Shown: positions 6,047 to 60,808, counted from the first letter of the stretch. The stretch is DNA of 64,000 bases from an uncultured Alphaproteobacteria bacterium (GCA_963819345.1 CAWFVX010000013.1:22852-86851); one strand, 5' to 3'. Notes: generated from the letters alone by a model not told the origin. Made by a program: numbers and translations.

Positions 6047-7522
6047 CTACTCGATTTCCTCGTGCCAGGTGCGGCCGTCGCGCTCGATCAGCGCGATCGC
6101 GGCGGTAGGGCCCCAGCTTCCCGCCGGATAGGGACGCGGATGGTCCGGCCTCGCCGCCCATCCCTCCAGGATTGGCTCGACCCAGGCCCAGGCAGCCTCG
6201 ACTTCGTCGCGGCGCATGAAGAGCGTCGGATCGCCACGCACGACATCCATCAGCAGCCGTTCATAGGCATCGGGAAAGCGCCGCCCGAACGTCTTCTCGA
6301 AGTTGATGTCGAGGCCTGTAGGGGAGAGCCGCAGACCACCGGGGCCGGGATCCTTGGTCATCATCTCCAACCGCATGCCTTCCTCGGGCTGCAGACGGAT
6401 GATCAGGGTATTGGGACGCCATTGTGCCGCGTCGGGAGGGAAGATGGTGAACGGCGGGGATCGGAACTGGATGACGATCTCGGACACTTTCGCGGGCAGC
6501 CGCTTGCCGGTGCGCAGGTAGAACGGCACACCGGCCCAGCGCCACGAGCGGACCTCGGCTTTCAGAGCGACGAAGCTCTCGGTGTTGGATACTTCCTCCG
6601 AGCCCAGATCGGCCGAGTAGCCGGGGACCGGCTTGCCGTCGATCGCGCCCTGGGTGTATTGGCCCCGCACCGTCAGGGCCGTGACTTCATGCGGTTCCAT
6701 GGGCTTCAGGGCACGCAGCACCTTCAGCTTCTCGTCACGCACCCGGTCAGCATCGAGCGAGACCGGCGGGTCCATCGCGATCAGGCACAGCAGCTGCAGC
6801 ATGTGATTTTGCAGCATGTCACGCAGCGCGCCGGATTTGTCGTAATAGCCGCCGCGGCCTTCCAGCCCGACCGTTTCGGCAACGGTGATTTGCACGTGGT
6901 CGATCACGTCGGCGGTCCATAGACGCTCGAAGATGGTGTTGGCGAACCGCAGCGCCATCAGGTTCTGCACTGTCTCCTTGCCCAGGTAGTGGTCGATGCG
7001 GAAGGTGTGAGCCTCGGAAAAGATCTTTCCGACCTCGTCGATGATTGCGTGCGCGGATGGGGCGTCGTGACCGATCGGCTTTTCCAGCACGACGTGGGAC
7101 TGTTCGGTGACCATGCCGTTGGCACCGAGCGCGTGGCAGATCGGACCGTAGAGGTCGGGCGAGGTGGCGAGGTAGAAGACCCGGACGCGGGCGTCGTCCA
7201 GCATGGGGCCGAAGCGGCTCCAGTCCGCGTCGTGCGCCGTAGCGTCGATCGAGACATAGTGCAGTTGCGCCAGAAACGCGCCGATCGATTCAGCATCCTG
7301 ATCGGCTTTCGGGAGGTGCTGTGCGAGGGTCTTGGCAGCGCGTTGCCGGTAGTCGTCGTCGGACAATTGGGATCGGGCGGCGCCGATGATGCGGGAGTCG
7401 GCGGGCATTTGCCCGTCGTGGAAGCGGTAGTACAGCGCCGGCAGCAATTTTCGCAGGGTCAGGTCGCCGGTGGCGCCGAAAACAACGCAGTCAAAGACGG
7501 CTACGGGTCTGATTTTCGGCAT
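6047..7522 (-). CDS. zwf: Glucose-6-phosphate 1-dehydrogenase
   Basis: [21 protein letters not shown] motif and RIDHYLGKE active-site motif; trimmed to ATG 7522 ([13 protein letters not shown]). Confidence 0.92.
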
Positions 7523-18181: not shown

Positions 18182-18877
18182 ATGCCCGAACGCCCCTTCA
18201 CCCAGTCTGACTTGGACGTGCTGGCGCAGTGGGACACTCCAACCATCTGCAACGGGCTGGAGATCGTGGTGCCGGAGCGCCGCGCCTTCGGCTTTACGGT
18301 GGAGCAGATGGTCTGCATCGACCCAAAGGCGAAGCCGATTGTCGGATTGGCGCGAGTGGGCATGATCCGGGCCACAGAGCCGCCACGATCCAAGGTCGCA
18401 GATCGCGCAGATTGGTATGACTATGTTGCTCGGGTGGATTTTCCGACCATCGCGGTGATCCAGGACATCGACGGCCGGGTCGGCTATGGCGCTTACTGGG
18501 GCGAGGTCCAATCCACGATCCACAAGGCGCTCGGATCGATCGGCTGCGTTACCAACGGGTCATTCCGTGATCTGGACATGTGGGCACCTGGCTATCAGAT
18601 GATCGGCGGACGGATTGGACCCAGCCACGCGCATGTGCACATGATTGATTTCGGCAAGCCGGTGAATATTTTTGGCATGCATGTGGCACATGACGATGTG
18701 ATCCACGCCGACTTCCACGGGGCGGTAGTGATCCCCGCCGATGCGGTGCGGAAACTGCCCGCCGCGATCGACCTGGTCTCCCGCCGGGAGGCTGTGATCC
18801 TGGAGGTTTGCCGGGCGCCGGGCTTTACCCCCGCCAAGCTGCGGGAAGCTCTCCGGAAGTCCGGCGAAATTCACTGA
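18182..18877 (+). CDS. RraA-family protein (RNase E regulator / HMG aldolase-like)
   Basis: Track ORF 17954..18877 trimmed to ATG 18182; TPTICNGLE and GCVTNGSFRD motifs. Confidence 0.7.
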   Translation: MPERPFTQSDLDVLAQWDTPTICNGLEIVVPERRAFGFTVEQMVCIDPKAKPIVGLARVGMIRATEPPRSKVADRADWYDYVARVDFPTIAVIQDIDGRVGYGAYWGEVQSTIHKALGSIGCVTNGSFRDLDMWAPGYQMIGGRIGPSHAHVHMIDFGKPVNIFGMHVAHDDVIHADFHGAVVIPADAVRKLPAAIDLVSRREAVILEVCRAPGFTPAKLREALRKSGEIH

Positions 18878-19644
18878 GTTCGGCGGGCCTTCATCCGCTG
18901 GATCGCCTCGGAGACCATCCGGGTTGGTTCATCGGTTTGATAGGCGCGCGAGATGCAGCGTATGCCGGCTTCGATCGCGTCGTTGACCGGCATCGCTTCC
19001 CACTCCCGGATCAGTTCCTTCTGCAGCCGGATCGCTTTGGGTCCGGATTCGACAATGGATGTCACCCATTGGCCGAGGGCGGCGTCCAGATCAGCGGCAG
19101 GAACGACTTTCTCAACCAGCCCCCAGTCCAGGGCGGTGCGGGCGTCTATGTTGTCGCCGGTGTAGAGCAGCAGTTTTGTCCGCCCCCACCCGATCAATTG
19201 CGGCAGCAGAGCGGCCTCGACGACGGAGGGCAGGCCGATCTTGACCTCCGGCATGCCGAAGACCGCGTTGTTGCTGGCGATGTGCATGTCGCACGCCGCC
19301 ATGACCTCGAGGCCCGCACCCAGGCAGAAGCCGTTGACCCGGGCGATGACCGGCACCGGCAGGTCGCGCAACACTTTGCACATGCGATGAATCAGAATGA
19401 GGAAGTCTCGTGCCTTCGAGGGATTTAGCGCGCCGAGCTCGTGCAGATTGGCACCGCCGATGAAGGCACGGTCGCCCTCGCCGGTGATGATCAGCACGCG
19501 AAGATCCGGGTCGTCCGCCAAAGCGGTCACTGCCTCGATGAATGCCGTGATCTGGGCCTGGCCAAGGCAGTTCAGGCGCGCGGTGTTGTCGATGGAAACG
19601 GTCGCGACCGCGCCGTCTTGGTCGCGGCGGATGCGCAGGGTCAT
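18871..19644 (-). CDS. Enoyl-CoA hydratase/isomerase (crotonase) family protein
   Basis: Crotonase pattern VLIITGEGDRAFIGGANL and NGFCLGAGLEVMAACD; trimmed to ATG 19644, which forms an ATGA overlap with the upstream SDR stop. Confidence 0.8.
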   Translation of the reverse strand: MTLRIRRDQDGAVATVSIDNTARLNCLGQAQITAFIEAVTALADDPDLRVLIITGEGDRAFIGGANLHELGALNPSKARDFLILIHRMCKVLRDLPVPVIARVNGFCLGAGLEVMAACDMHIASNNAVFGMPEVKIGLPSVVEAALLPQLIGWGRTKLLLYTGDNIDARTALDWGLVEKVVPAADLDAALGQWVTSIVESGPKAIRLQKELIREWEAMPVNDAIEAGIRCISRAYQTDEPTRMVSEAIQRMKARRTQ

Positions 19645-20444
19645 GACTGTATCCTCTGATTCCAGCCGATAGGGCCCCGGAAAGGTCTCATATCCGGATA
19701 GCCGCTGACCGCCCACGCGCCGTCGACCAGTAGGCTGGCGCCGTTGACGTAGCTTGCGTCCTCGCTGGCGAGGTATAGCGCGGGCGCGGCTATTTCCTCC
19801 GGCTGCGCTGAGCGGCCCATCGGGATGCGTTGCTCGAAGGCGGCAAGGGCGTCGGGGTTATCGAAGTGCCGGCGCGTCAAATTGGTCTGCACCAGTCCCG
19901 GCAATATCGCATTCACTCGCAGACCGAATTCCGCGAATTCCAATGCGCCATTGCGTGACAGCATCTCGACGCCGGCTTTGGCGGCGACATAGGCTGACCC
20001 GGCATGCATCGGCACATGGGCGTTCAGCGATGCGATGTTGACGATGGCGCCGCTGCCCTGGCGTATCATCTGCCGCGCTTGGTGCTTCATGCCGAGAAAC
20101 ACGCCCTTGAGGCACAAATCGACGGTGAAGTCCCAGTCGGCCTCCGCCAGATCGACGATGTAGCCGCCGCGAGACCCGCCGGCGACGTTGAACGCCGCGT
20201 GGACCCCTCCGAACCGGTCTACTGCGGTTGCAACAAGTTCCTCGGCCGAGGACTCCTTGGTGACGTCGCCTGCGATCCCCACGAAAGCATCGCCTAGGTC
20301 ACCGACTGGATTCACATCGGTCCCGACGACGTTCGCACCCTCGGCCAGCAGGCGTTTCGTGATGGCCAGTCCGATACCCGAAGCGGCACCGGTTACCACC
20401 GCCACCTTGCCGGCGAACCGGTCTTTGCACGCGATCATCTGCAT
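19641..20444 (-). CDS. SDR-family oxidoreductase
   Basis: VVTGAASGIGLA cofactor motif and the catalytic YVAAK; trimmed from the 373-aa track ORF to ATG 20444. Confidence 0.85.
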   Translation of the reverse strand: MQMIACKDRFAGKVAVVTGAASGIGLAITKRLLAEGANVVGTDVNPVGDLGDAFVGIAGDVTKESSAEELVATAVDRFGGVHAAFNVAGGSRGGYIVDLAEADWDFTVDLCLKGVFLGMKHQARQMIRQGSGAIVNIASLNAHVPMHAGSAYVAAKAGVEMLSRNGALEFAEFGLRVNAILPGLVQTNLTRRHFDNPDALAAFEQRIPMGRSAQPEEIAAPALYLASEDASYVNGASLLVDGAWAVSGYPDMRPFRGPIGWNQRIQS

Positions 20445-20516
20445 TCTCCCCCCCGTGTTAAGAGTTTGGCAACTATTGCCGTGGTTCCGTGTCCGGGTTT
20501 TCGCTGGGAAGCCTGC

Positions 20517-23396
20517 ATGGAAGTATCGGTCGGGATCAAGGTCGCTGCCCGCGGTCTGGAATGGGATGTGACCGAGGTGGAAGGTCTCGGCGCCCAGCAG
20601 CGGGTGCGGCTGGCGTGCTCTGGGGGCGATCTGGCCGGCCTGGAATGGGACGTGCTTTTTCCAGCCGAACCCCTGTCGGTTCTGCGCACCGAACCGCGCG
20701 CTGACGAGGCCGGCTCTTTGGAAGCCTGGCGCCGCTATCACATCGCCCGGCTGCTGGAGCAAATCCCCGGCGCTCCGGTCCCGCCTGGCCGCGTCGCGAT
20801 CGAGGCCTACCAGCGGGTGCCCCTACTGCGGGCGCTCGACATGGTGCGCCCGAGGCTGCTGCTCGCCGACGGCGTCGGCTTGGGAAAGACCATCCAGGCC
20901 GGGCTGATCGCGGCCGAACTGCTGGTGCAGCGCCGAGCGCACCGGATCCTGATCGTTTGTCCGCCTGGTCCGCTGTTGCGCCAGTGGGAGCAGGAGATGC
21001 GCATCCGCTTCGGCCTTCGCTTCACCTCCATCGCCGACAGTGCCGAACTACGGAGCGCTCGGCGAGGTCTGGAACTCGGGGGCAACCCGTTCAATGCGAC
21101 AGCGCTATGTCTGACCTCGATCGATTTCGCTAAGCAGGATAGTGTGCTGGCGGAGTTGGAACGCGTCGCCTGGGATCTGGTCATCATCGATGAAGCGCAT
21201 CATTGCGTCGGCGAGGAAAACCGGCGTCGCCGTCTCGCCGAAGTGCTGGCGGCCAAGGGCGACGGGCTACTGCTTCTGACCGCAACTCCGCATGACGGAT
21301 ACGATCCGAATTTTGCCACACTGATGGCTTTGCTCGACCGTAGCCTGGTGGACGGCGCTGGCCAGTTGGTGGGAACCGCTTATCGTCGGCATGTCGTGCG
21401 CCGGATGAAATCGCATATTCGCACGCTGTCGGGCACGCCGCTGTTCCGGGAACGGATTGTCATCCCGGTGCGGGTGGATGTGACCGACGCCGCGGCGGTG
21501 GGGGATTTTCATAAGGCCCTGTCGGCGTTCGTGGCGCCCCGGCTGCAACGGTCGCGTGATCGAAAGGGTCTAACCGATGCACTGGCGTTCGTCAGCCTGC
21601 TGAAACGATCGATGTCCACCATCGCCGCGTGCGTCGCAACCTTGCGCGTGGTGGAAGATCGGTATGGCACGAAACAGTTGCGAGAACGTCAAAGAGCATT
21701 GAGCGCCTATCGCCGGCGGTTGGCTCGTTTTGGTGTGCTGGGAGCAGCCGAGGAGGCGGAGATCGCCGACCTGGAAGCCGAGGAGATGGCTGCCAATCTG
21801 GAAGGCACGACTGCTGAACTACATGAACTCATCCGTCTGGGCGAGGCGGCGGCGGCAAACGATCCGAAGCTGGCTGCGCTGGTGCTGGAAGTAAGGCTGA
21901 TCCGCTTACGCCATCCGGATGCCAATATCCTCGTCTATACGGAATATGCCGACAGCCAGCGCGCCGCGGTGGAAGCGCTGACAGGGATCGGCGGTTCCGT
22001 TCTGACCATCAGCGGCTCGGATTCCGAAGCCGACCGCACGGCGGCAGCGGAGCGCTGCACCGAGGAAGACGGGATCGTGCTGGTCAGCACTGACTCCCTG
22101 GCAGAAGGCCTGAACCTGCACCAGCGCTGCTTTCAGCTGATCCACCTCGATCTGCCGTACAACCCGAATCGGCTGGAACAGCGCAACGGCCGGATCGACC
22201 GCTATGGGCAACGCCACGATCCGGAGATTCGATACCTGTTTCTCGCGGGCACCTTCGAGGAGCGGCTGCTGTTGCGGCTGATCGCGAAATACGAGAAGGC
22301 GCGGGCATGTTTGTCGTTTATGCCGAATACACTGAACGTCGGTGCCGATCCCGCCAGCCTGCACGAACCGTTGTTCGCCGGCTTCGCTGAGGACTTGTTC
22401 AGCGCCATGCCGCGACTGGTGCACTCGCTTGATTTGGCCGCGGAGGATACGGACAGCGAGGCCTACCGTGAGCTGCTGCGGGAAATCGATCGGGCGTTTC
22501 AAAGCTTCGACCAACTGGCGGTACGTCACGCCTGGTTGTCGGGCGGCGAGGGGCTTGAGCCGGCGCCGCAGGAGAGCCAGTGCGGCATTGATCTGACCGC
22601 ATTCGTTCGATCTGTTTTGGTCCCAGAAGCTGACGCGTTTCGCGTGCCGCCCGCCTGGGGACAGGACCTGCACGGATTGCCCGGCTTCGATCAGGAAAGC
22701 GGGATTGTGCGGCTGACGGACGATCCCGAGCGTCTGCGGGATTCAAGTGGGCGGGCGCTGATGTATCCCGGGCGGTCACATCCGCTGACCCGGCGAGCGA
22801 TCACGTCGGTGAGGACAGGGCGGGTCAGCGCGGCACGCGGACAGAAGCGATCGTTGCTCATGACATATGCGGTGGAAGCCGGATCGCTTCTCCGCACGGT
22901 TTTCGCGCTGCTTCTGTCGCCGGATGGTACGGTCAAAGAACAAGCAGATTTTCTTTCCTGCGCCGATGATCCGGTGTTTTCGGACAGGTTGTGGCAAAAG
23001 AAGTTTGCGTCCTGGGCGCCAGAAGCGCTCGTGGCGGCTGGTGTGCGGGCGGTGCAGATCGGAGAGCGGATCGCTTCTGTCGCCGCTGCCGCCCATCAGG
23101 ACCGTCTGGCCCGGCAGGACGCCGTCGTTCGTGCCTGGCTGATACGGCGTGCATACGAACTCTGTGGACCGGCAGAAGCTCGCTTGGGAGACTTGTTCTC
23201 CTCCAGACCTTCAGACACTGACTGGAGATCCTGCGAGGTACCGGAACAGCGGCTGGCCGAGTTCGCGGCTGATCCGACGGTCCCGATCGCACGACGCCGC
23301 GAAGCAACCGACGCCCTGGAGCAATCAACAGCGAGACCGCTGCCGTTCCCGCGTCCGGCAGTGCGGACTTTGGGTATGCTGATGCTGGTGCCGTGA
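20517..23396 (+). CDS. SNF2/RapA-like superfamily-2 ATPase (helicase-like translocase)
   Basis: Motif I ADGVGLGKT, II IIDEAHH, III LLLTATP, V VLVSTDSLAEGLNLH, VI PYNPNRLEQRNGRIDRYGQ; about 100-aa N-terminal and about 390-aa C-terminal regions without motifs I recognise; ATG 20517 preferred over 20466. Confidence 0.85.
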   Translation: MEVSVGIKVAARGLEWDVTEVEGLGAQQRVRLACSGGDLAGLEWDVLFPAEPLSVLRTEPRADEAGSLEAWRRYHIARLLEQIPGAPVPPGRVAIEAYQRVPLLRALDMVRPRLLLADGVGLGKTIQAGLIAAELLVQRRAHRILIVCPPGPLLRQWEQEMRIRFGLRFTSIADSAELRSARRGLELGGNPFNATALCLTSIDFAKQDSVLAELERVAWDLVIIDEAHHCVGEENRRRRLAEVLAAKGDGLLLLTATPHDGYDPNFATLMALLDRSLVDGAGQLVGTAYRRHVVRRMKSHIRTLSGTPLFRERIVIPVRVDVTDAAAVGDFHKALSAFVAPRLQRSRDRKGLTDALAFVSLLKRSMSTIAACVATLRVVEDRYGTKQLRERQRALSAYRRRLARFGVLGAAEEAEIADLEAEEMAANLEGTTAELHELIRLGEAAAANDPKLAALVLEVRLIRLRHPDANILVYTEYADSQRAAVEALTGIGGSVLTISGSDSEADRTAAAERCTEEDGIVLVSTDSLAEGLNLHQRCFQLIHLDLPYNPNRLEQRNGRIDRYGQRHDPEIRYLFLAGTFEERLLLRLIAKYEKARACLSFMPNTLNVGADPASLHEPLFAGFAEDLFSAMPRLVHSLDLAAEDTDSEAYRELLREIDRAFQSFDQLAVRHAWLSGGEGLEPAPQESQCGIDLTAFVRSVLVPEADAFRVPPAWGQDLHGLPGFDQESGIVRLTDDPERLRDSSGRALMYPGRSHPLTRRAITSVRTGRVSAARGQKRSLLMTYAVEAGSLLRTVFALLLSPDGTVKEQADFLSCADDPVFSDRLWQKKFASWAPEALVAAGVRAVQIGERIASVAAAAHQDRLARQDAVVRAWLIRRAYELCGPAEARLGDLFSSRPSDTDWRSCEVPEQRLAEFAADPTVPIARRREATDALEQSTARPLPFPRPAVRTLGMLMLVP

Positions 23397-26300
23397 CGCT
23401 CGATCTCGGCGATTGCGTTCTCGTTGGTTCCGCAATGACCGAAAGCTTCCTGCGGGACGGTCTCGCTCCGGTGGCGCACGTCTCGAGTGGCGTCGAAGCT
23501 GAATGGGATAGTTTGCGTGCGTCGCTGCGGACCGGTGGAGCGCAGCGCGTCCATCAACATGTCACGACAAAGTTGGCATCGACCTTTGGTTACGGCCGCC
23601 CGTTGCGTCAGCACTCGGTGTCCACCCGGGAAGGACAAGAGGACGGCGGTTGGTTTTTGCAGGGCGCCAATGGCGAGCGGCTGCGTGCCTGGTCAATTCC
23701 CAGCGAAATTGATCTCGATGGACCAGACCGCTCGGCCCGCGCCTTTCGATCCAGCCCCACGCGTATCGCGCAGCGTGTCCTGCTGGCCAGCGGCGAGCGC
23801 GCCGGCTTGCTGACCAATGGCGAGGTCGTGCGCCTGTTGCTGTGCGATCCCTCCCGCTCGGATAGTCACCTGTCGGTCGGCATCAATGGGTGGAGGCAGG
23901 AGAAGCTTCCTCCGGATTCGTTTCGTATCCTGAAGGCACTGGCCGGGGCAGAGGGGTTGACCCGGCTCTCTGGCGTGCTCGAAGCCGCAAGGCTGCATCA
24001 GGTTCGCGTCACGACGAGCTTGCGCCGGCAGGCCCGTGAAGCGATCGTCGGCTTCATCAATGCACTGCCCGACCGAATTGGGATGGATCCGGCTGCGCTC
24101 TGGCACGAGGGTCTGATACTCGTCTATCGGCTACTCTTTATCCTCAAGCTGGAAAGCCCCGCCGAGGCGGGAACCGGCTTCAGTTTTGCTTCCACACGGT
24201 TGTGGCGTGAGTCGTTGTCGCCAAATCAAGCATTGGGATCGTTGGTACGAAGACATCTCGATCAGGGTCATGACACCGGGCGAATGCTTGAAAGTGGCCT
24301 TCGGCGATTATTCGCAATCTTTCATGGCGGCTTACATTGTAGCGAGCTGAATATCGTTCCGCTCGGCGGTGCGCTTTTCGGCGCGAGCACAACCGGGGTG
24401 CTGGACCGGATCGACTGGGGAGATCGCGCGGTAGCGCTTCTGCTCGATCGACTGATCTGGATCGTTTCGGCGCGCGGCGAACGGACGAGAGTGCATTACG
24501 GCTCACTGGATGTGGAGGACCTCGGCAGCATTTACGAGGGATTGTTGGAACAGGAACCCGGCATAGCTACGGAGCCACTGGTCCGTATCCGCCGCGGCAA
24601 AATGGAAGCGGTCGTCGCGGCAATGGAACAGCAAGGCGACATTCAATCTGGTCAGTTTTATTTGCGCACCGGGATGGGCCGCAAAGCCTCGGGTTCGTTC
24701 TACACGCCGCATGAATTCGTTCGCTTCGTGGTGCGGGAGACCTTGGACCCCAAGATCGCCGCCCTCAGCCCACTCGAGGACCCCCACCCTGCCCGCCTGT
24801 TGACGCTGAAAATTGTCGATCCCGCGTCGGGCAGCGGCCACTTTCTGGTCGAGGCGTGCCGGCATTTGGGTGAGGCTCTGCTAACCGCCTGCCGCCTTTG
24901 CGATGAACGCGGCTTGCACGACCGTATCGCCGCATTGCCTGACCCCGACGAGACGATCGCGGCCTATCTGCCCAGCCGAGGCTTTTCTGAACGCCGAGCG
25001 CGCGCAATCTGCCGTCGATTGGTGGCGGTGCATTGCCTGTATGGCTGCGATCGTAACAAACTAGCCGTCGAGCTGGCGAAACTCTCGCTGTGGCTGGAGT
25101 CCTACGCCGAGGGGCTGCCACTGACGTTCCTGGATCATCGATTGGTGCACGGGGACGCGCTGACCGGGCCATTTTTCGCTTCGCTTTCGACCCTTCCGGT
25201 AACCGGGGGCGTCCTCGATCCGCTGCTGGCGGGCGGTGTCGCCGACCGGCTGGACACCAGCTTACAGGAGGCGCGGCGGCTGGTCGCCACGCTGAATGCT
25301 TCGATCGGCCGCGACATCACTGATCTGAGGACGAAACAGGCGGCCAAGGATCGTTTGGACCGGGTGCTGCAGCCTCTGCGACAACTCGCGCGGGCCTGGG
25401 CGGGGGCGGCGATGTTGCGCGAGAGGGACGGCGACGACGTCTGGCTTGCGTTGGCCAGCGGGGTTGCTGAGACCGGATTTTGGCCGGATGCGTTGACTGA
25501 CCGTCAGGCGAAGCTTCTGGCAGCCGGGGCCGATGCGGTCGCCTGGGATGTAGTATTCCCGGAAGTGTTTCCCGGCGGCTTCTCGGTCGTTCTCGGTAAC
25601 CCGCCTTGGGATGTGGTCCTGCCGAACACCAAGGATTTCGTCGCGGACTACGATCCGGCCATTTTCGACGCCCGAACCCGGACCCAGCGGGCAGCGATCG
25701 AACAGGCGGTGCTCGCGCGACCTGGCGTTGCGGCGGCGTTTGATGCGTACCGCCTCGGCTTTGACCAATTGAAGCGAATCGCCGCACGGCTGTACCGCCA
25801 TCAGCGCGTCCGCGCCGGCAGCGAGACGACTGCGGGAAACCTCGATCTGTTTCGTTTGTTCGCCGAACGCAATATCGGTCTGAGCGGTGCGGATGGTACT
25901 ATTGGTGTGCTGATGCCCTCGGCTTTCCATGCCAACGAGGGCACCACCGGTATTCGTCGCCTATATCTCCAGGAAGCTGCCCTGCGTTTGTGCCTGTCGT
26001 TTGAAAATCGCCGCCGAATTTTCGATATCGACAGTCGATTTAAGTTTGACCTGATCGTGGCGCAACGGCCGGGTCCGACGAAAGAACTGCGCTGCGGCTT
26101 CTACCTCGACCGTATCGAGGATGCGGCCGACCCTACGAAGATCATGACATACACAACGCAGTTTCTCGACGAAACCGGCGGCACGCCATTGGAACTGCGG
26201 GGCATCACGGACCAGCGGATCGCCGAGGCTGTGTTCGCACAGCCCGGCCGGCTGGGGACGTGGTGCGCGGAGCGGCATATCCGATTCGGTAACGATCTGC

Positions 26301-27064
26301 ACATGACTGCGGACGCTGGTTGCTTCAGGCCTGCCGGAACCGCCGACCTGACGCTGCACGAGGGAAAGACGTTCCACCAGTATACCGACATTTGGGACAC
26401 AAGACCGCGCTACAGCGTCGCATCCTCCGCCGGCAACTCGGCCGCCGCCCGGCACTACCGTCTCGTCTTCCGCGACATCGCCCGATCCAACGATGAGCGC
26501 ACAATGATCGCCTGCATCGCGCCGCCCAGTACGGTGTTCGGCCATACCGCAACCGTTGAGAAGACCCCCTGGGAACGCCCGATCGCTTCGGCTCTGGCAC
26601 TGTGCGCGCTGTTCAACTCGTTCCCGTTCGATTGGCTGGTGCGGCAGAAGGCGGCGACGCACCTTAGTCTGTATCTGCTGCGAGGGCTACCCGTCCCGGC
26701 CTTCAGCGCTAGCGAGAGTCAATTCCTGGCCGGCGCGGCGCTACGTCTGTCCTGCAATCACTCGGGGTATGATGAACTCTGGCGAGATCAGGCTGGCGCG
26801 GTGCATGGGTTGGCGGGATGGGCGCTGCGGGCCGAAATCGATGCCGTAGTGGCGCGTCGCTACGGGCTTGACCGCAGCCAATATGACCACCTGCTACGAG
26901 CTTTCAGCCATCGTTCCTACCCAGAAGCTCCCGCGCTCTGCCTTGCGGCCTTCGATAAGGCCGGGAATGTTGAGGGCCGGGACTCCGATTCGTTCGAGAG
27001 GCGCCCCCCTGCCTCGAAAACACCAGCTCAACTCGGTCGGGCGTCACAGCGCAGGCTGGTGTAA
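23393..27064 (+). CDS. Large gamma-class N6-adenine DNA methyltransferase with a C-terminal specificity-like region (Type IIG/ISP/PglX-like architecture)
   Basis: 1223-aa ORF; SAM motif I IVDPASGSGHFLVEA precedes catalytic motif IV VLGNPPWD; C-terminal YRLVFRDIARSNDERTMIA and LFNSFPFDWLVRQ blocks; GTGA overlap with the helicase stop (alternative ATG at 23435). Confidence 0.85.
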   Translation: MTLDLGDCVLVGSAMTESFLRDGLAPVAHVSSGVEAEWDSLRASLRTGGAQRVHQHVTTKLASTFGYGRPLRQHSVSTREGQEDGGWFLQGANGERLRAWSIPSEIDLDGPDRSARAFRSSPTRIAQRVLLASGERAGLLTNGEVVRLLLCDPSRSDSHLSVGINGWRQEKLPPDSFRILKALAGAEGLTRLSGVLEAARLHQVRVTTSLRRQAREAIVGFINALPDRIGMDPAALWHEGLILVYRLLFILKLESPAEAGTGFSFASTRLWRESLSPNQALGSLVRRHLDQGHDTGRMLESGLRRLFAIFHGGLHCSELNIVPLGGALFGASTTGVLDRIDWGDRAVALLLDRLIWIVSARGERTRVHYGSLDVEDLGSIYEGLLEQEPGIATEPLVRIRRGKMEAVVAAMEQQGDIQSGQFYLRTGMGRKASGSFYTPHEFVRFVVRETLDPKIAALSPLEDPHPARLLTLKIVDPASGSGHFLVEACRHLGEALLTACRLCDERGLHDRIAALPDPDETIAAYLPSRGFSERRARAICRRLVAVHCLYGCDRNKLAVELAKLSLWLESYAEGLPLTFLDHRLVHGDALTGPFFASLSTLPVTGGVLDPLLAGGVADRLDTSLQEARRLVATLNASIGRDITDLRTKQAAKDRLDRVLQPLRQLARAWAGAAMLRERDGDDVWLALASGVAETGFWPDALTDRQAKLLAAGADAVAWDVVFPEVFPGGFSVVLGNPPWDVVLPNTKDFVADYDPAIFDARTRTQRAAIEQAVLARPGVAAAFDAYRLGFDQLKRIAARLYRHQRVRAGSETTAGNLDLFRLFAERNIGLSGADGTIGVLMPSAFHANEGTTGIRRLYLQEAALRLCLSFENRRRIFDIDSRFKFDLIVAQRPGPTKELRCGFYLDRIEDAADPTKIMTYTTQFLDETGGTPLELRGITDQRIAEAVFAQPGRLGTWCAERHIRFGNDLHMTADAGCFRPAGTADLTLHEGKTFHQYTDIWDTRPRYSVASSAGNSAAARHYRLVFRDIARSNDERTMIACIAPPSTVFGHTATVEKTPWERPIASALALCALFNSFPFDWLVRQKAATHLSLYLLRGLPVPAFSASESQFLAGAALRLSCNHSGYDELWRDQAGAVHGLAGWALRAEIDAVVARRYGLDRSQYDHLLRAFSHRSYPEAPALCLAAFDKAGNVEGRDSDSFERRPPASKTPAQLGRASQRRLV

Positions 27065-27205
27065 CGCGCTGCAACAAAAACAATAAAAGCAATGCATTGT
27101 CGCGTAACACGGGGCAACAATCATTGACTCGGCGCGGGGAACGAAACGCGCTAGGGGCGTTAGTGTAGTTAGCGATTGCGCTCGTACACGGACTGGACAC
27201 TTTGG

Positions 27206-28171
27206 ATGGATGGCTTAGTCAGACTGCCGAGCGATCAAAAGGACGTGGCCCCGGCCGGTATTTCATCCGGCTGCCGGCAGCGGACTCTCAAGGCCGCGAT
27301 CAATTGCGTCGGCGTCGGTGTCCATTCCGGCCGGCGGGTCACCCTCACCATCCGACCCGCGGCCGCCGATCACGGTATTGTTTTCCACCGCACCGACCTG
27401 AACCGCGTGATCGCAGCGCACTTTGACAACGTCGCCGATACACGTCTGTGCACTGTGCTGGCCGATCCTGCCATGGCCTCTGCCCGAATTGGCACCGTCG
27501 AGCATCTGATGGCTGCGCTGTCCGGTCTGGCCATCGACAACGCGCTGATCGAGGTCGACGGGCCGGAGATCCCGATCCTGGATGGATCCGCCGCGCCGTT
27601 CGTTTTTTTGCTCGATTGCGCCGGATCGGTCGAATTGGACACACCGCGGCGGGTGTTCGAAATATGCCGCCCCGTCCGCGTCACCTCTGGCGAATCCTGG
27701 GCCGAACTCCTGCCGCTTGGTTCGGGAACCCGCGCCGCGCAGCCGGTTCTGGAAATGGACTTGTCGATCGATTTTGCCGCCAGCGCGATCGGCCGGCAGT
27801 CCGTAGCCTTGCGGCTGACGCCGGACACCTTCCGCAATGAGATCGCCGCCGCCCGGACCTTCACCCAAGCTTGTGAGGTGGAGGAGCTCCAGGCCGCCGG
27901 TTTGGCGCGCGGCGGTAGTCTCGACAATGCGATCGTCGTCGACGGGTCGAACATCCTCAATAGCGGCGGCTTACGCATGGCGAACGAATTTGCCAGCCAC
28001 AAGCTGTTGGACGCGGTGGGCGATCTGGCGCTGGCTGGAGTCGGGTTGCACGGACGCTTCGCCGCGTATCGGCCCGGCCATGGGCTGAACAATCGCCTGC
28101 TGCGGGCGCTATTCGCCGATGCCGCCGCTCTGCGCCTGGTTACGGCGGCTCCGCTTACCGCCGCGGCTTAA
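27206..28171 (+). CDS. lpxC: UDP-3-O-acyl-N-acetylglucosamine deacetylase
   Basis: TLKAAINCVGVGVHSG N-terminus, TVEHLMAAL, and HKLLDAVGDLALAG...YRPGHGLNN C-terminal motifs. Confidence 0.9.
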   Translation: MDGLVRLPSDQKDVAPAGISSGCRQRTLKAAINCVGVGVHSGRRVTLTIRPAAADHGIVFHRTDLNRVIAAHFDNVADTRLCTVLADPAMASARIGTVEHLMAALSGLAIDNALIEVDGPEIPILDGSAAPFVFLLDCAGSVELDTPRRVFEICRPVRVTSGESWAELLPLGSGTRAAQPVLEMDLSIDFAASAIGRQSVALRLTPDTFRNEIAAARTFTQACEVEELQAAGLARGGSLDNAIVVDGSNILNSGGLRMANEFASHKLLDAVGDLALAGVGLHGRFAAYRPGHGLNNRLLRALFADAAALRLVTAAPLTAAA

Positions 28172-28224: not shown

Positions 28225-29073
28225 ATGAATACGAGCTCACCCATGTTGCGCATCCTGTTCCTTGGGGCCATCGCGCTTTCGTTCTCTGGCTGCGGATCGT
28301 CGGAGGAGAATACCAAGCAAGCCTCGACCGGTCCGGTAGAGGAGCTTTATAACAACGGCGTAGATGCCTTAAGCGCGCGCCGATTTACCACCGCCGCGGA
28401 TCAATTCAACGCCGTCGAGCAGAATTATCCCTACTCCACCTGGGCGGTGAATGCGCAGTTGATGTCGAGTTACTCGCTTTATTTGCAGAACAAATACACC
28501 GAGGCCCTGGGCACGCTCGACCGCTTCATTCAGCTCCATCCGGCGCATAGAGACATAGCCTACGCCTATTACCTGCGTGCGCTGTGCTACTACGAGCAAA
28601 TCGCCGATATTCAGCGAGACCAGAAGGGCACCGAAGAGGCGATGAACGCGCTGCGGGAGGTCGCGACCAGGTTTCCCGACACGGCCTATGCTCGTGACGC
28701 GAAGTTGAAGATCGACCTGTGCTTTGACCATCTTGCCGGCAAAGAGATGGAAATAGGTCGATTCTACCAGAGGCAGCACCTCTACGAGGCAGCGATTGGA
28801 CGCTTTCAGCGCGTGGTGGATGATTTCCAAACCACCAATCACGCGCCTGAGGCACTGGCCCGGTTGACCGAAGTCTATCTTGCGCTAGGCCTGAAGGATC
28901 AGGCGCGCAAAAGCGCCGCCGTGCTTGGATACAACTATCCCGGCAGCGAGTGGTATAGCGCTACCTATGCTAACCTCGTGGACGTTGGTATAGCCCGCCC
29001 CGGGGACAAATCGCCGAGTGGCAGCCAGGAGCGGCCCGGCTTCTTCTCTCGTGCATGGCATGCTGTGTTCTGA
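28225..29073 (+). CDS. bamD: Outer-membrane protein assembly factor BamD
   Basis: Lipobox LSFSGC; TPR-like YfiO pattern (YPYSTWA, AYAYYLRALCYY, FPDTAYARDA). Confidence 0.88.
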   Translation: MNTSSPMLRILFLGAIALSFSGCGSSEENTKQASTGPVEELYNNGVDALSARRFTTAADQFNAVEQNYPYSTWAVNAQLMSSYSLYLQNKYTEALGTLDRFIQLHPAHRDIAYAYYLRALCYYEQIADIQRDQKGTEEAMNALREVATRFPDTAYARDAKLKIDLCFDHLAGKEMEIGRFYQRQHLYEAAIGRFQRVVDDFQTTNHAPEALARLTEVYLALGLKDQARKSAAVLGYNYPGSEWYSATYANLVDVGIARPGDKSPSGSQERPGFFSRAWHAVF

Positions 29074-29106: not shown

Positions 29107-30821
29107 GTGCTGACCGCGCTATCGATTTGCGATGTCGTGCTGATAGAGCGGCTCGATCTGGCGTTCGAACAAGGTCTGACAGTGCTGACCGGCGAGACCG
29201 GTGCCGGCAAGTCGATTCTGCTCGACAGTCTCGGCCTTGCGCTCGGGGCGCGTGCGGAAACGGGCCTGGTCCGAGTGTCCGCGGAACATGCGAGTGTGAC
29301 TGCTTGCTTTTCGCCGCCTGACCGTCCCGCCTTGGCTGCCATGCTCGAACTGCACGGGTTGGCTGCGGACGAGGAGATCGTGCTGCGCCGCGTCGTGATG
29401 CGGGACGGCCGCTCACGCGCCTTCGTCAATGATCATCCGGTCGGTGTCGGCCTATTACGGCGGGTCGGGGCGTTGCTGGTGGAGGTGCAAGGCCAGCACG
29501 AGCAATTGAGTTTGGCTGATGCCACCAGTCACACCGGCCTGTTGGATGCGTTCGGGGTGGAACCGGCGTTACGGATCGCGGTGTCCGAGGCGTGGCACGC
29601 GTGGCGGGAAGCGCTGCGCCGGCTGGAACACGCGCGCGCGGCCATCGCCGCTGCCGAACGCGACGAGGAATGGCTGCGGCACGCGGTCGAGGAGCTTGCC
29701 ACCCTGGCGCCGCGAATTGATGAAGAAGACTCCCTGGCGCGCGAACGTCAGCGGCTGCAGCAGAGCGAACGGCGTGCGGAGGCAATTGCCGCCGCTCTGG
29801 CGGAGCTGACACCACGTGATCGGCGCAACGCCGGGCCGGCGGCCTCGTTGCGCGCGGCATCGCGATCGCTGCAACGCCTGGCGCCCTCGGGTCAGCCTGA
29901 GGTGACAGGCGAGAACCCGGCTGATCCGGCGCTCGCTGCGCTGGAGCGAGCGGAGGAGGCGCTGGCCGAAGCGGAAACGCTGTTGACGCGCCTCATCGCC
30001 GATGCGGATGTCGATCCGCGTCTGCTGGAACAGTCGGAGGAGCGGCTGTTCGCGCTGCGAGCCTCAGCCCGCAAGCATGGTGTCGCGGTTCCGGATCTGC
30101 CAGAATTGCTCGATACATTGGCCGCTCGATTGGCGGCGCTGGAGACCGGCGCGGCCGAGATCACGGCGCTGGAACAGGCGGCACGGGATGCCAAAGACCG
30201 ATACGTGGCCGCGGCTACGGCGCTTTCGGGTGCGCGAACCGCGGCCGCCGGGAAACTACAGAAAGCGGTGGGCAAGGAGTTGCCGCCGCTGCGTCTGGAC
30301 AAGGCTCGTTTCTTCGCCGAATTGAGTCCGCTGCCGGAGTTTGGGTGGGGTCCGAACGGCGCGGATCAGGTGCGCTTCCTGATCGCCACCAACCCGGGCC
30401 AGGAACCTGGACCGTTGGCACGCGTTGCTTCGGGCGGCGAGTTGTCGCGGTTGATGCTGGCGATGAAAGTGGTGTTGTCGGCGGGTTCCGATGTCTCAAC
30501 ACTGGTGTTCGACGAAGTCGACTCCGGGATCGGCGGTGCGACTGCTGCCGCGGTTGGCGAGCGATTGGTCCGTGTCGCCGAGGGTTTGCAAGTGCTGGTC
30601 GTGACGCATAGCCCACAGGTCGCCGCTCGCGGAGCCTGGCATTTTCGGGTCGCGAAGGCAGCATCCCGCGATCGGACAGCGACAACCGTGGATCAATTGG
30701 CGCCGCACGCCCGGCGCGAGGAAATCGCGCGAATGCTGGCCGGAGAGATCGTTTCTGACGCGGCACGTGCGGCGGCGGATGATCTGCTACGTGGCCAGAG
30801 GCCGCCGCAGGGATTGCTGGT

Positions 30822-30825
<4 letters not shown>
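29107..30825 (+). CDS. recN: DNA repair protein RecN
   Basis: Walker [17 protein letters not shown], long coiled-coil middle, signature [12 protein letters not shown], Walker [13 protein letters not shown]; ATGA overlap with ligA. Confidence 0.9.
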
Positions 30826-32913
<2,088 letters not shown>

Positions 32914-32961: not shown

Positions 32962-33441
32962 TCAGCGCTGGCGCGCTGATGCGGTGCCTGCCTTCACCAT
33001 GGCTGCCCTGACGTTATCAGGATTGGTAAAGGTGAGATATTCTCTCGCGTACTCGGGTGGCAGAATCTCAACCATCGTCTCGTTCTCGACCCAGACCTCG
33101 ATCACATGGAACGGGCCGCGATTGCAATCATAGCAGTGCCACCCCGCGTGCCGGGCGATCGTCTGCACAGTATCGGCGTCAGTCGAGACGCTGAGCGCAA
33201 AGTGTGTCGAGCCATAGCCACGTGCGTCCGCCTTCACGAAGCTGCCACCCACCTCCCCGCCAGGCTGAAGCTCTGTTCCCGCCGGATAGACCTCAACCCC
33301 CGACCCATGTTCGTCGAGTTGCAGCGCAAAGAAACTGCCCGGATTGGGCGGGAAAGGTACCGCGGTTCCGCCCATGAGCTCAGCAAGCACCCCAGCGGCG
33401 TGCTTCGGGTCTCGCGCGGCAATCGAAAGATGATGGATCAC
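32962..33441 (-). CDS. VOC/glyoxalase-family protein
   Basis: Track ORF trimmed to GTG 33441, preceded by GAGGAAG; IHHLSIAARDP start and a paired beta-alpha-beta-beta-beta-like pattern. Confidence 0.55.
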   Translation of the reverse strand: MIHHLSIAARDPKHAAGVLAELMGGTAVPFPPNPGSFFALQLDEHGSGVEVYPAGTELQPGGEVGGSFVKADARGYGSTHFALSVSTDADTVQTIARHAGWHCYDCNRGPFHVIEVWVENETMVEILPPEYAREYLTFTNPDNVRAAMVKAGTASARQR

Positions 33442-33787
33442 GGCTTCCTCACGAGTTCGGTTTCTGTATAGATAGCACGAACGCAACTGCCGCTCCAGCG
33501 GGCCCGAAGTGCCGTGATCACGTCTCGGACGCCAATTGGCCGCAAAGGCTTGCGATTCTTGCCCTCTGGCAAGCGCGATGAGCGAGCAGCCGCTTGGTGC
33601 AGTTGCGCCGTCGAAAGTTGTCGACCGTGCTGAGAACGGGGTGAAACGGTTGGCCTATCGACCACACCCGGCGCTTGGGATAAGCTTGGCTAGCCGAACC
33701 CCGATCCAGCGTGATTCCAAGAAAATCCTCGTCTGGTCGTGACCATCCGGCCACCGCAGCGGTCCTCGGCAGCTCATGGGGGAAGGT

Positions 33788-59428: not shown

Positions 59429-60808
59429 TTAGAAACGGGCTGCAGCCCAGATGCTGAAGTATAGGGCGTTGTTGGCGGCCGCATTATTGGTGACGCCGTC
59501 GAAGCGGAAGTAGCTGACGTATTGCACGGCTAGGCGGACATTGCCCCACGAGATAAAGGAGTCCGGCTTACCCCATGGCACATACGCGATCTCAGCGATC
59601 ATGCCCGAAGTGTTCGGACTACCGTTCGGCGTTGCCCAATACGCCGGGTCGCCGGTGCCGTTGGTTTGGAAATATTGGATCGAGGGCGTGACGGTCGCGC
59701 CTAGACTATACGACACATCGGCGCGAAACGTATTCAGGCCATGATATGGCAGCGAACCGTTGATTGCCCTGCTGGCGCCGAGCCAGCCGTCCTCGTGGAT
59801 CAGGGTGGCGTGTGCTGAGACTATGTCGCTGGTGACGCTGCGAGGATTGACGTAAAACTGGTAGTTGGCGTCCAGCGCGAGATCGGTGAACTGATCCGCT
59901 TGGCCGGGAACTTCGATGCCGCCGGGTGCCACGTTCCCATTCAGGCCGTATGTGCCGACTTCGAAGTAGTGGCGGCCAAAATCCTTCTGCAGTGCCAGGC
60001 GCCAGTAGGGAATGACTCCCAGCGTCTTGTCGGTATTGGCGACTGGAACGATCCCGGTGGCGTTCAGCACGTCATACCCAAGGCCCCGATAGAGGTCGAA
60101 CTCGGCGTAGACCAGACTGTTCCACATTGCATAGGCGCCGGCCCCGGCTACGCGTTGGCCCAGGCCGCCATCGATCAATGTCGCTGCCAAAGGCGTTGGG
60201 GCGAGCGGCGAGCTGTTATATGGAAAGCTCCAGACCGGCGTTGAATTCCACAGGTCAGACACGGTCGGGCTGTTGTTAGCAGTAAAACCGTAGACGAAAT
60301 CTTCGTCGAACAAGTCCGTGTCGTGCGCATAACGGATGTCAGCGTTGTCGACATGTCCCTGATCGGCGACGCCGTCATAGGTGAGTTGAATGAAGGCGCC
60401 AAACCCCCCGGCAATTTTCCCGGCGTAATACACGGACGCCTGGTCCATCGCGAAGTTGTTGTTGGAGGCGAAATGCGGGGCGGCCGGACCCGGCTGATCG
60501 TTGTTGGTGTGGGTGAAGGATAATTGCGTGGTGACCGCGAGCGGTAGGCCGTGTTTCTTATTATCGGTTGCGGTGTAGCCGTTCAGCTTAAATTCGCGGC
60601 CGAATTTGGTGAGCTGCGGCCCGAAAGCGCCAACGTGACATGCCGCACAGGGCTGTCCGGTCTGCCCCGCGAACGATGGAACGGCGGTAGCGGTGATGGG
60701 CCGGAGCAGCAGAAACGCGGCGAGGATAGACCCAAATGCAAACCGCAGGATGAACCGCAACCGCAGAATGCGGGCCCGCGGCGGAAGCGAGAGCTGCGGC
60801 ACACTCAT
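59429..60808 (-). CDS. Fused monohaem cytochrome c / outer-membrane beta-barrel (Cyc2-like architecture)
   Basis: Signal peptide, then a single CXXCH (PSFAGQTGQPCAACHVGAFGPQLTKFGREFKLNGY), then about 400 aa with an alternating beta-strand pattern ending in ..WAAARF (terminal Phe beta-signal). Confidence 0.7.
   Translation of the reverse strand: MSVPQLSLPPRARILRLRFILRFAFGSILAAFLLLRPITATAVPSFAGQTGQPCAACHVGAFGPQLTKFGREFKLNGYTATDNKKHGLPLAVTTQLSFTHTNNDQPGPAAPHFASNNNFAMDQASVYYAGKIAGGFGAFIQLTYDGVADQGHVDNADIRYAHDTDLFDEDFVYGFTANNSPTVSDLWNSTPVWSFPYNSSPLAPTPLAATLIDGGLGQRVAGAGAYAMWNSLVYAEFDLYRGLGYDVLNATGIVPVANTDKTLGVIPYWRLALQKDFGRHYFEVGTYGLNGNVAPGGIEVPGQADQFTDLALDANYQFYVNPRSVTSDIVSAHATLIHEDGWLGASRAINGSLPYHGLNTFRADVSYSLGATVTPSIQYFQTNGTGDPAYWATPNGSPNTSGMIAEIAYVPWGKPDSFISWGNVRLAVQYVSYFRFDGVTNNAAANNALYFSIWAAARF

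Follow-up and report, generated by a model that had tools for sequence, protein, structure and literature searches.

The ATPase-methyltransferase gene pair

A stretch of 64,000 nucleotides from an uncultured Alphaproteobacteria bacterium (GCA_963819345.1, CAWFVX010000013.1:22852-86851; hereafter the window) contains two overlapping plus-strand genes, termed A and B, which encode a SNF2-family ATPase and a DNA methyltransferase (MTase) and stand among housekeeping genes. Open reading frame (ORF) A (20517..23396) starts with ATG and encodes an ArmA/DrmD/BrxHII-like (RapA-like) SNF2 ATPase of 959 aa, and ORF B (23393..27064) starts with GTG and encodes an ArmB/DrmMI/PglX-like single-chain gamma-class N6-adenine DNA methyltransferase of 1223 aa. 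They share the four nucleotides GTGA (23393..23396), in which the GTG start of B lies over the TGA stop of A, an arrangement of translational coupling. A 4-nt overlap (GTGA or ATGA) also occurs in the relatives L001, L004, L005, L006, and L010-L013 (homologous loci are designated by L numbers), and the A/B junction is TGATG in L017 and L022. A preliminary description of this DNA had reported a 959-aa ORF A from ATG 20517 with a full SNF2 motif set, an ORF B in which the S-adenosylmethionine (SAM) motif lies upstream of NPPW in the gamma-class order, and the GTGA overlap; all of the quoted motifs were present, and the overlap was read directly in the sequence.

The longest reading of ORF A opens at TTG 20466. 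We preferred ATG 20517 because the homologues are 959 aa long and open with MExSVGIK. The start of A is separated from that of a divergent SDR gene (start at 20444, minus strand) by an intergenic region of 72 bp (20445..20516), which is presumed to hold the promoter of A-B. Approximately the same spacing, 76 bp, was observed between SDR and the A homologue in L001, L003, and L004. Scanning for promoters and terminators around the operon revealed nothing above the shuffled expectation, and the same was true of a consensus promoter on the plus strand.

The catalytic motifs of both proteins are invariant in 34-35 homologues of 57-92% identity. In A these are the Walker A motif GKT (G123-T125; 20883-20891), DEAH (D225-H228; 21189-21200), and QRNGRIDRYGQ (Q555-Q565; 22179-22211), each invariant in 35 sequences, and in B the SAM motif I DPASGSGHF (D476-F484; 24818-24844) and the catalytic NPPW (N736-W739; 25598-25609). 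Protein A begins with a small conserved domain without family assignment (residues 1-85; 20517..20771), in which the alignment shows invariant G13, L14, W16 and G41, L42, W44, and whose ratio of nonsynonymous to synonymous substitution rates (dN/dS) is 0.09-0.31. It is followed by the SNF2 ATPase core (residues 86-600; 20772..22316; dN/dS 0.08-0.16), where Pfam assigned SNF2-rel_dom, ResIII, and Helicase_C over residues 109-564. The remaining part (residues 601-959; 22317..23393) is a conserved C-terminal domain with a beta-sheet, a long helix, an invariant H755-P756, and several invariant Trp residues. Its AlphaFold2 model (m564df393d3f5, residues 590-959) had an overall predicted local distance difference test score (pLDDT) of 81.8, with most 10-residue blocks above 90 from model residue 101 onward, and Foldseek detected no match to it in PDB or BFVD at E<=0.001.

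Protein B consists of four parts. The first (residues 1-235; 23393..24097) is a family-specific alpha/beta domain with invariant T78, R79, E83, G86, R98, W100, R119, R128, E135, D152, S158, and D175 in alignments of 19-46 sequences that included members with and without linked effector genes; these alignments contained neither an invariant Lys nor a (D/E)xK signature. A profile of this domain gave nothing meaningful against PDB sequences, and a Pfam scan of 19 such sequences at E<=5 returned scattered single-member noise only. The domain is rare: among 1.84e9 proteins it has 140 representatives, and in the full-length representatives it is N-terminal in proteins of ~1140-1560 aa except for one of 3552 aa (P0441). 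In the latter, B residues 122-175 are matched in nine separate stretches, so that it appears to be a repeat protein made from part of the domain. The second part (residues 236-415; 24098..24637) is a helical linker ahead of the MTase, as in Type IIG/IIL enzymes; the PADLOC model REase_MTase_IIG (PDLC03613) covers residues 236-591 (4e-47). The AlphaFold2 model of residues 1-430 (mfd8806f754b3, pLDDT 85.5) shows an alpha/beta domain followed by a helical domain. The third part is the MTase catalytic domain (residues 416-860; 24638..25972; Pfam Eco57I, MmeI_Mtase, and N6_Mtase), and the fourth is a C-terminal target-recognition-like region (residues 861-1190; 25973..26962; YRLVFRDIARSNDERTMIA, FNSFPFDWLVRQ). 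NCBIfam TIGR02987, the Alw26I/Eco31I/Esp3I MTase family, aligns with residues 830-1176 (1e-17).

Relatives and their effector genes

Homologue searches assigned the window to a Rhodopila/Acetobacteraceae lineage in which A and B homologues share contigs; Rhodopila globiformis is among the carriers (homologue P0193). L001 belongs to a 3.9-Mb contig (ERZ26858887 ctg242142) and L005 to the metagenome-assembled genome CAWHWH01. Scanning of species-representative genomes yielded 80 loci, and A is followed by B in every locus that is long enough to show the order. Full-length relatives (A residues 1-959, B residues ~1-1190) were found at 50-92% identity in Acetobacteraceae/Rhodospirillales and at 42-45% identity (41-48% for B) in Cyanobacteria, Planctomycetota, Verrucomicrobiota, and Myxococcota; a chimeric search added Firmicutes, Thermodesulfobacteriota, and Omnitrophota to this class. 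In relatives at 35% identity or below, the helicase core alone aligns. One contig (L016, CAYZKM010000061.1) is labeled 'uncultured Bifidobacterium sp.'; it carries an Acetobacteraceae-type pair and an SDR gene 79% identical to that of the window, and its place in the tree is among Rhodospirillales. Mis-binning is the probable cause.

The SNF2 (BrxHII/RapA-like) ATPase and the PglX-like MTase form a module that is common to class 1 DISARM, ARMADA types I and II, and BREX (bioRxiv 10.1101/2025.09.15.676423). E. coli ARMADA II needs all four of its genes, as well as the Walker motifs of ArmA and NPPW of ArmB; deletion of armC abolishes defence, and the C-terminal Vsr-type domain of ArmC, a helicase of the YprA family, is the part to which the nuclease has been assigned (bioRxiv 10.1101/2025.09.15.676423). 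We made the comparison with ARMADA through the cyanobacterial and other loci of ARMADA architecture (L017, L020-L022, L028, L085-L088) in place of the E. coli ARMADA II proteins. A protein of 1773-1911 aa with DEAD, YjiV_N, Helicase_C, and MZB domains is encoded directly after the pair in Anabaena PCC 7108, in Desulfofundulus, and in a metagenome-assembled genome of Thermodesulfobacteriota; Pfam assigned this domain set in L085-L087. L088, the plasmid ABRG53a of Pseudanabaena sp. ABRG5-3 (NZ_AP017561.1), encodes a DEAD+Helicase_C+MZB helicase of 1896 aa with a weak MTES_1575/Vsr-like C-terminus and an ArmD-like fusion of ParE/RelE and UvrD (ParE_toxin + UvrD). A Phd/YefM-VapC toxin-antitoxin pair lies between the ArmA-like and ArmB-like genes of this plasmid (8143-8848), and its ArmB-like protein is named merely 'hypothetical protein' in RefSeq.

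Searching with tblastn detected a YprA-like gene downstream of the pair in all eight loci of the full-length clade outside Acetobacteraceae that have at least 4.9 kb of flank; with plasmid L088 included, a YprA-type helicase was present in 9/9 loci and the effector lay within ~2 kb of B. Outside L085-L088 these helicases are tblastn matches at 52-62% identity. The same search detected no YprA-type effector in 6-10 kb flanks of any of the 16 loci of the Acetobacteraceae clade, the window included. An ArmD gene was also absent from the scanned ORFs of the window and from all 16 clade members. In a neighbor-joining tree of A, computed without support values, these orphan pairs form a single clade, which is sister to the YprA-linked clade of several phyla and is nested among partner-linked outgroups. 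A single loss of the effector would be the simplest history. The C-terminal domain of A is also present in the ARMADA-linked relatives. The ratio of identity in this domain to that in the core is 0.71 in the orphan clade vs 0.93 in an ARMADA-linked control group, and this apparently lower constraint would be compatible with the loss of an interaction partner. B of the window is ~200-300 aa shorter than its ARMADA-linked homologues.

The preliminary description had stated that no partner gene lies in the window and that the parts required by DISARM and BREX are missing, and the searches bear this out. The ORFs scanned within ~13 kb of the pair and the long ORFs scanned farther away in the window encode metabolic or housekeeping functions or lack a Pfam match; small ORFs were scanned over only part of the window. 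When YprA/ArmC-like, DrmA-like, and other partner proteins were compared with all 64 kb by tblastn, the best E value was 0.25. A short, unrelated nuclease gene is conceivable far from the pair in the window. Two ORFs without Pfam match at the thresholds used, 32962-33486 (minus strand, 174 aa) and 59429-60808 (minus strand, 459 aa), do not adjoin the pair. The flanks are those named earlier, as Pfam agreed: an enoyl-CoA hydratase gene (ECH, 18871-19716) and SDR (19641-20444) lie on the minus strand on the left, and lpxC (27176-28171), bamD/yfiO (28225-29073), recN (29107-30825), and ligA (30822-32872) follow on the right. In the present assembly ligA is broken into two overlapping ORFs of 168 and 515 aa near 31263. 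Compared with the 92%-identical L005, where ligA is one ORF of 693 aa, the window has two extra base pairs (TA); the gene is essential, and the indel either arose in assembly or marks a true frameshift. We considered ECH-SDR as functional partners of the pair and rejected this; since L002 and L010-L014 lack ECH-SDR beside the pair, the arrangement is better read as conserved synteny.

Several genes that accompany the module in relatives were also recorded. In more distant loci the partners are PADLOC 'DrmA'-type proteins with an upstream C5-cytosine MTase and Vsr, DruE/YprA-like proteins, and GHKL-ATPase 'REase_II' proteins. L060, L064, L079, L082, and L083 mostly have a C5-cytosine MTase (DrmMII-like) before the module, with a Vsr gene in addition in L082, and a protein of ~1330 aa after it that scores 1523 bits on a PADLOC DrmA model; neither DrmB nor DrmC was seen as a gene of its own within the available flank. 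L050, L070, and L080, and also L054, L077, and L081, have a 652-aa GHKL-ATPase (PADLOC 'REase_II') or HATPase_c_3 + Methyltransf_35 proteins. The SNF2-MTase module is thus promiscuous in its effectors. In L017 (17722-19413) and L020 (10387-12168), one a Synechococcus and the other a Myxococcales locus, a gene for Schlafen AlbA_2 + HATPase_c_4 (with a winged helix-turn-helix) lies between the B homologue and the YprA helicase. A gene of ~260 aa without Pfam match comes immediately after B, or overlaps its end, in L001 (16651-17457), L002 (16203-16976), and L029 (about 6720-7400), and the copies of L001 and L002 are 57% identical. It was rejected as a third component of the system: neither the window nor other members of the clade have it, and the small genes of ARMADA loci show no relationship to it. 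The B homologue is divided into at least two ORFs in L005 (12877-16583), which is the closest relative, L003 (12568-16795), L017 (13246-17729), and L028 (13204-17521), and both the A and B homologues are broken into ORFs in L029 (253-7237). Indels of long-read assembly or, in some lineages, genuine decay could account for these breaks.

Comparison with known systems

The pair is almost certainly a module of the ArmA/ArmB type, homologous to DrmD/DrmMI and BrxHII/PglX-like proteins. Thus, the earlier suggestion that the locus represents an undescribed kind of system does not hold, as the module is a recognized one and its nearest full-length relatives are ArmA and ArmB of ARMADA-type loci. With the latter, the pair shares full-length homology at 42-45% identity, including the C-terminal domain of A and the N-terminal domain of B, and the tightly coupled order of A then B; a BrxHII/RapA-like SNF2 helicase stands next to a PglX-like N6-adenine MTase, as ArmA does next to ArmB. 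The window differs in that ArmC, with its DEAD, Helicase_C, and MZB/DUF1998 domains and C-terminal Vsr-type nuclease, and ArmD are missing. In further contrast to ARMADA, the pair is syntenic with housekeeping genes, it is passed on vertically, and its specificity region shows no diversification.

Likeness to DrmD and DrmMI of DISARM had also been pointed out, and these were indeed the top database matches for both proteins, which show the same pairing of SNF2 ATPase and gamma-class m6A MTase as class 1 DISARM. The best profile match of A was PADLOC DrmD (1.1e-100, residues 85-597), and that of B was PADLOC DrmMI (9.1e-90, residues 417-739), followed by Type IIG models. The matches are limited to the catalytic cores, and A scored 348 bits with NCBIfam DISARM_DrmD (residues 84-597), under the equivalog cutoff of 610 bits. 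Residues 1-85 and 600-959 of A and 1-415 of B could be assigned to no family. The DISARM core, DrmA (helicase), DrmB (DUF1998), and DrmC (PLD), was not found with the pair: the scanned ORFs of the window contain no DUF1998/MZB or PLD domain, and the DrmA-like tblastn search of the 64 kb was blank. DrmMI is reported to methylate the asymmetric 6-bp motif ACACAG even without the rest of DISARM, and alone it has no anti-M13 effect.

A also matches BrxHII profiles (9.5e-61), as would be the case for BREX type 3 (BrxHII + PglXI), and its closest sequence match in PDB is RapA (1.7e-37). Unlike in BREX type 3, B is marginal on PglX models (E about 1e-4), PglZ, BrxC, BrxA, and BrxF are absent from the surroundings of the pair, and the scanned ORFs of the window contain neither PglZ nor BrxC. 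In its architecture, B resembles the Type IIG/IIL enzymes MmeI, BpuSI, and DrdV, with an N-terminal alpha/beta domain, a helical linker, a gamma-class MTase in which motif I precedes NPPW, and a C-terminal recognition region. Type ISP enzymes (LlaGI/LlaBIII) also join an SF2 motor with such an MTase. The pair differs from both types in that it has no recognizable PD-(D/E)XK or Mrr motif and that the motor is a separate, RapA-like protein. The sequence similarity of B to these enzymes is confined to the MTase motifs: a direct search of PDB sequences with B gave no match, and the profile of B detected only the MTase motifs of BsaXI and DrdV.

In function, though not in ancestry, a parallel is the cluster DnmA (YeeA)-YeeB-YeeC of B. 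subtilis, a relic of a defence or restriction-modification system, in which an MmeI-family-like single-chain MTase without a nuclease motif stands beside a helicase. This MTase is an orphan m6A enzyme that recognizes a non-palindromic site and affects gene expression, and no restriction or anti-phage activity of the cluster was detected. The B. subtilis cluster differs in gene order, with the MTase first, in its YeeC (T5orf172), and in its distribution as a low-GC, horizontally acquired island of one species, whereas the A-B pair is family-wide. In the literature searched, we found no description of a stand-alone system of SNF2 ATPase and MTase.

Inheritance, selection, and the role of the pair

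On the left, the junction with ECH-SDR is common to the window, L001, L003-L007, and L009; on the right, the flanking genes vary. L005 shares the whole arrangement of ECH-SDR, A-B, and lpxC-bamD-recN-ligA at 92% identity. The synonymous divergence (dS) of A and B was 1.1-1.9 in most comparisons and that of the flanking ECH and SDR was similar (0.75-1.3). A had a dN/dS of 0.12-0.19 and B one of 0.11-0.15, and the values of the individual domains, the unannotated ones included, were 0.08-0.31. Together with the recurring overlap of the genes, the synteny and these values indicate that the pair is an old, vertically inherited resident under purifying selection and neither a recent island nor a pseudogene. 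For the case that the pair was acquired, an old acquisition or one from a relative had been proposed on the basis of host-like composition, which turned out to be a less clear witness: GC of the pair (0.60-0.66) is like that of the window and its codon-usage distance is inside the host range, but GC at third codon positions (GC3; 0.715 for A and 0.703 for B) is 1.5-2 standard deviations below the host mean of 0.763 (standard deviation 0.031). Overall, the host-like character held approximately. With so small a deviation and a codon-usage distance in the host range, the case for a foreign origin by composition was weak, and we did not retain it.

The specificity region was evaluated by comparing the identity of B per alignment column before and after NPPW. 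In a Verrucomicrobia group around the ARMADA-linked L022, the identity was 0.85 before and 0.38 after NPPW, a ratio of 0.45, which would be the expected signature of specificity switching and agrees with the literature on E. coli, where armB is the variable gene. In the orphan clade, the ratio was 0.95, and it was 0.96 for the 13 closest sequences. The non-diversifying recognition region may be taken as a signal of domestication and, with the intact motifs and the purifying selection, lends indirect support to an orphan MTase of defence-system origin.

These data can be explained as follows. The YprA-family effector ArmC was lost in the ancestor of an Acetobacteraceae/Rhodospirillales clade, and the two genes left behind have since passed down vertically as a resident operon of the chromosome, their function preserved by purifying selection. 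A and B are expected to be made in a fixed ratio from one coupled transcript and may form a complex, in which B would bind SAM and methylate adenine at N6 in a motif that is asymmetric like the ACACAG of DrmMI, and the ATP-driven SNF2 motor may aid B in target search or access along duplex DNA. Because ArmC is missing, no cleavage is expected; the output would be genome methylation, serving as an epigenetic mark and possibly as protection when ARMADA-type elements with the same specificity enter the cell, and not restriction. We assign a probability of roughly 0.6 to this explanation as a whole, an ARMADA-like module that lost its effector and became a domesticated methylation-plus-motor pair. 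For its functional part, co-translated A and B that methylate without cutting, which draws on analogy, we consider the chances evenly balanced. That a methylation-plus-translocase module might act on its own had been one of two alternatives in the preliminary description; it is still the best reading, and the lack of specificity diversification now adds evidence of domestication.

The other of these alternatives was a minimal split Type ISP system with a cryptic nuclease, and it is unsupported by the present results. In a self-contained restriction-modification system of the split Type ISP/IIG-like kind, cutting after ATP-driven translocation by A would fall to the N-terminal domain of B, as a divergent nuclease of the PD-(D/E)XK type. 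It is true that this domain is strongly conserved under purifying selection with the invariant acidic residues E83, E135, D152, and D175, and that the best structural matches of the B 1-430 model in PDB are the N-terminal parts of DrdV (7lo5_A, E 3.9e-3, probability 0.82) and BpuSI (3s1s, E 7.6e-3, probability 0.63) over ~350-380 columns. However, these matches are weak, with a TM score of about 0.19 and none at E<=0.001, and the domain has no invariant Lys, no (D/E)xK, and no similarity to nuclease families in Pfam or PDB sequences. In contrast to Type ISP enzymes, in which Mrr/PD-(D/E)XK is joined to motor, MTase, and target-recognition domain (TRD), A and B are separate polypeptides, and neither matches a nuclease family. 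A cryptic nuclease in the C-terminus of A fares no better, since the model of this domain resembles no known fold in Foldseek searches. Moreover, the C-terminal domain of A and the N-terminal domain of B occur in relatives that have a dedicated nuclease-helicase, and therefore they are not compensating nucleases gained by the orphans. As defence by E. coli ARMADA II is abolished by deletion of armC, the pair alone does not restrict there. We thus regard a self-contained nuclease as quite improbable. It is more improbable still that the pair is a functionless, decaying relic of an ARMADA locus. The loss of the effector, the frameshifted B in L005, L003, and L029, and the relaxed constraint on the A C-terminus would fit decay, but dN/dS of 0.11-0.19 at dS above 1, intact ORFs in the window and most relatives, the invariant catalytic motifs, and the recurring start/stop overlaps speak against it. 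The B splits in the relatives may be assembly errors, as an indel also breaks ligA, an essential gene, in the assembly of the window.

Working defence with an effector in trans is unlikely, though less so. A and B would then mark self DNA, sense unmethylated DNA, and hand it to an unlinked YprA-type helicase-nuclease or another nuclease. The requirement for all four genes in E. coli ARMADA II, including the Walker motifs and NPPW, suggests that cooperation with an effector is what the pair is built for; DrmA-like, YprA-like, and GHKL-ATPase partners accompany the promiscuous module in different loci, and the ATPase is retained under selection. Nevertheless, none of the 16 orphan loci has an effector in its flanks of 6-10 kb, an unlinked arrangement would be atypical given that the effector lies within ~2 kb of B in all nine ARMADA-linked relatives, and the absence of TRD diversification is contrary to use in an arms race. 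We would rate as somewhat more doubtful an exclusion without nuclease as in BREX, in which the methylase marks self and the SNF2 motor, loaded where methylation is missing, keeps incoming DNA from being replicated or transcribed without cutting it. The relationship of A to BrxHII and the retention of an ATPase tightly coupled to the MTase are in line with such a function, and, according to the literature, the methylation-guided defence of BREX does not depend on the number of sites in the way that restriction does. On the other hand, DrmMI alone does not affect M13, a pair on its own has no experimental precedent, and conserved specificity with stable housekeeping synteny is unusual for active defence loci.

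Several points weigh against the explanation by effector loss and domestication. The inspection covered ~6-10 kb per relative and the 64 kb of the window, and an unlinked ArmC-like gene elsewhere is possible. The neighbor-joining tree of A carries no support values, and the control for diversification is one group of 21 sequences, with the context verified for L022 only. The split B of L005, L003, and L029 could reflect decay in parts of the clade instead of assembly errors, and the GC3 of the pair is low for the host. Finally, a plain orphan MTase has no need of an ATPase with intact Walker motifs, which hints at more than marking. It is possible, though tentative, that the pair is an autonomous two-protein machine, in which an ATP-driven, RapA-like SNF2 translocase obligatorily coupled to an m6A MTase, domesticated from ARMADA-type defence and maintained throughout a bacterial family, serves a fixed asymmetric mark or a nuclease-free exclusion. 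Neither of its two conserved domains, the C-terminal one of A and the N-terminal one of B, has a confident match in structure. If this is true, the pair would be a natural minimal system for what a motor of the ArmA/DrmD/BrxHII type does for its methylase.

The components and the module are known; what appears to be new is an effector-less ArmA/ArmB pair that extends across a family-level clade with housekeeping synteny, purifying selection, and frozen specificity. In ARMADA, class 1 DISARM, and BREX type 3, the pair always comes entangled with effectors, and the question is what the motor does and how it communicates with the methylase. The orphan lineage permits a direct test of whether the ATPase is needed for methylation, which motif is written, and whether the pair alone has a protective or regulatory effect. 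If a distant effector exists, the components of ARMADA-type systems need not be linked, a point of importance to tools that annotate defence systems by co-localisation. The pair represents a family-wide case of a defence module that has apparently turned into a resident epigenetic module, and it complements the single-species case of DnmA-YeeB-YeeC.

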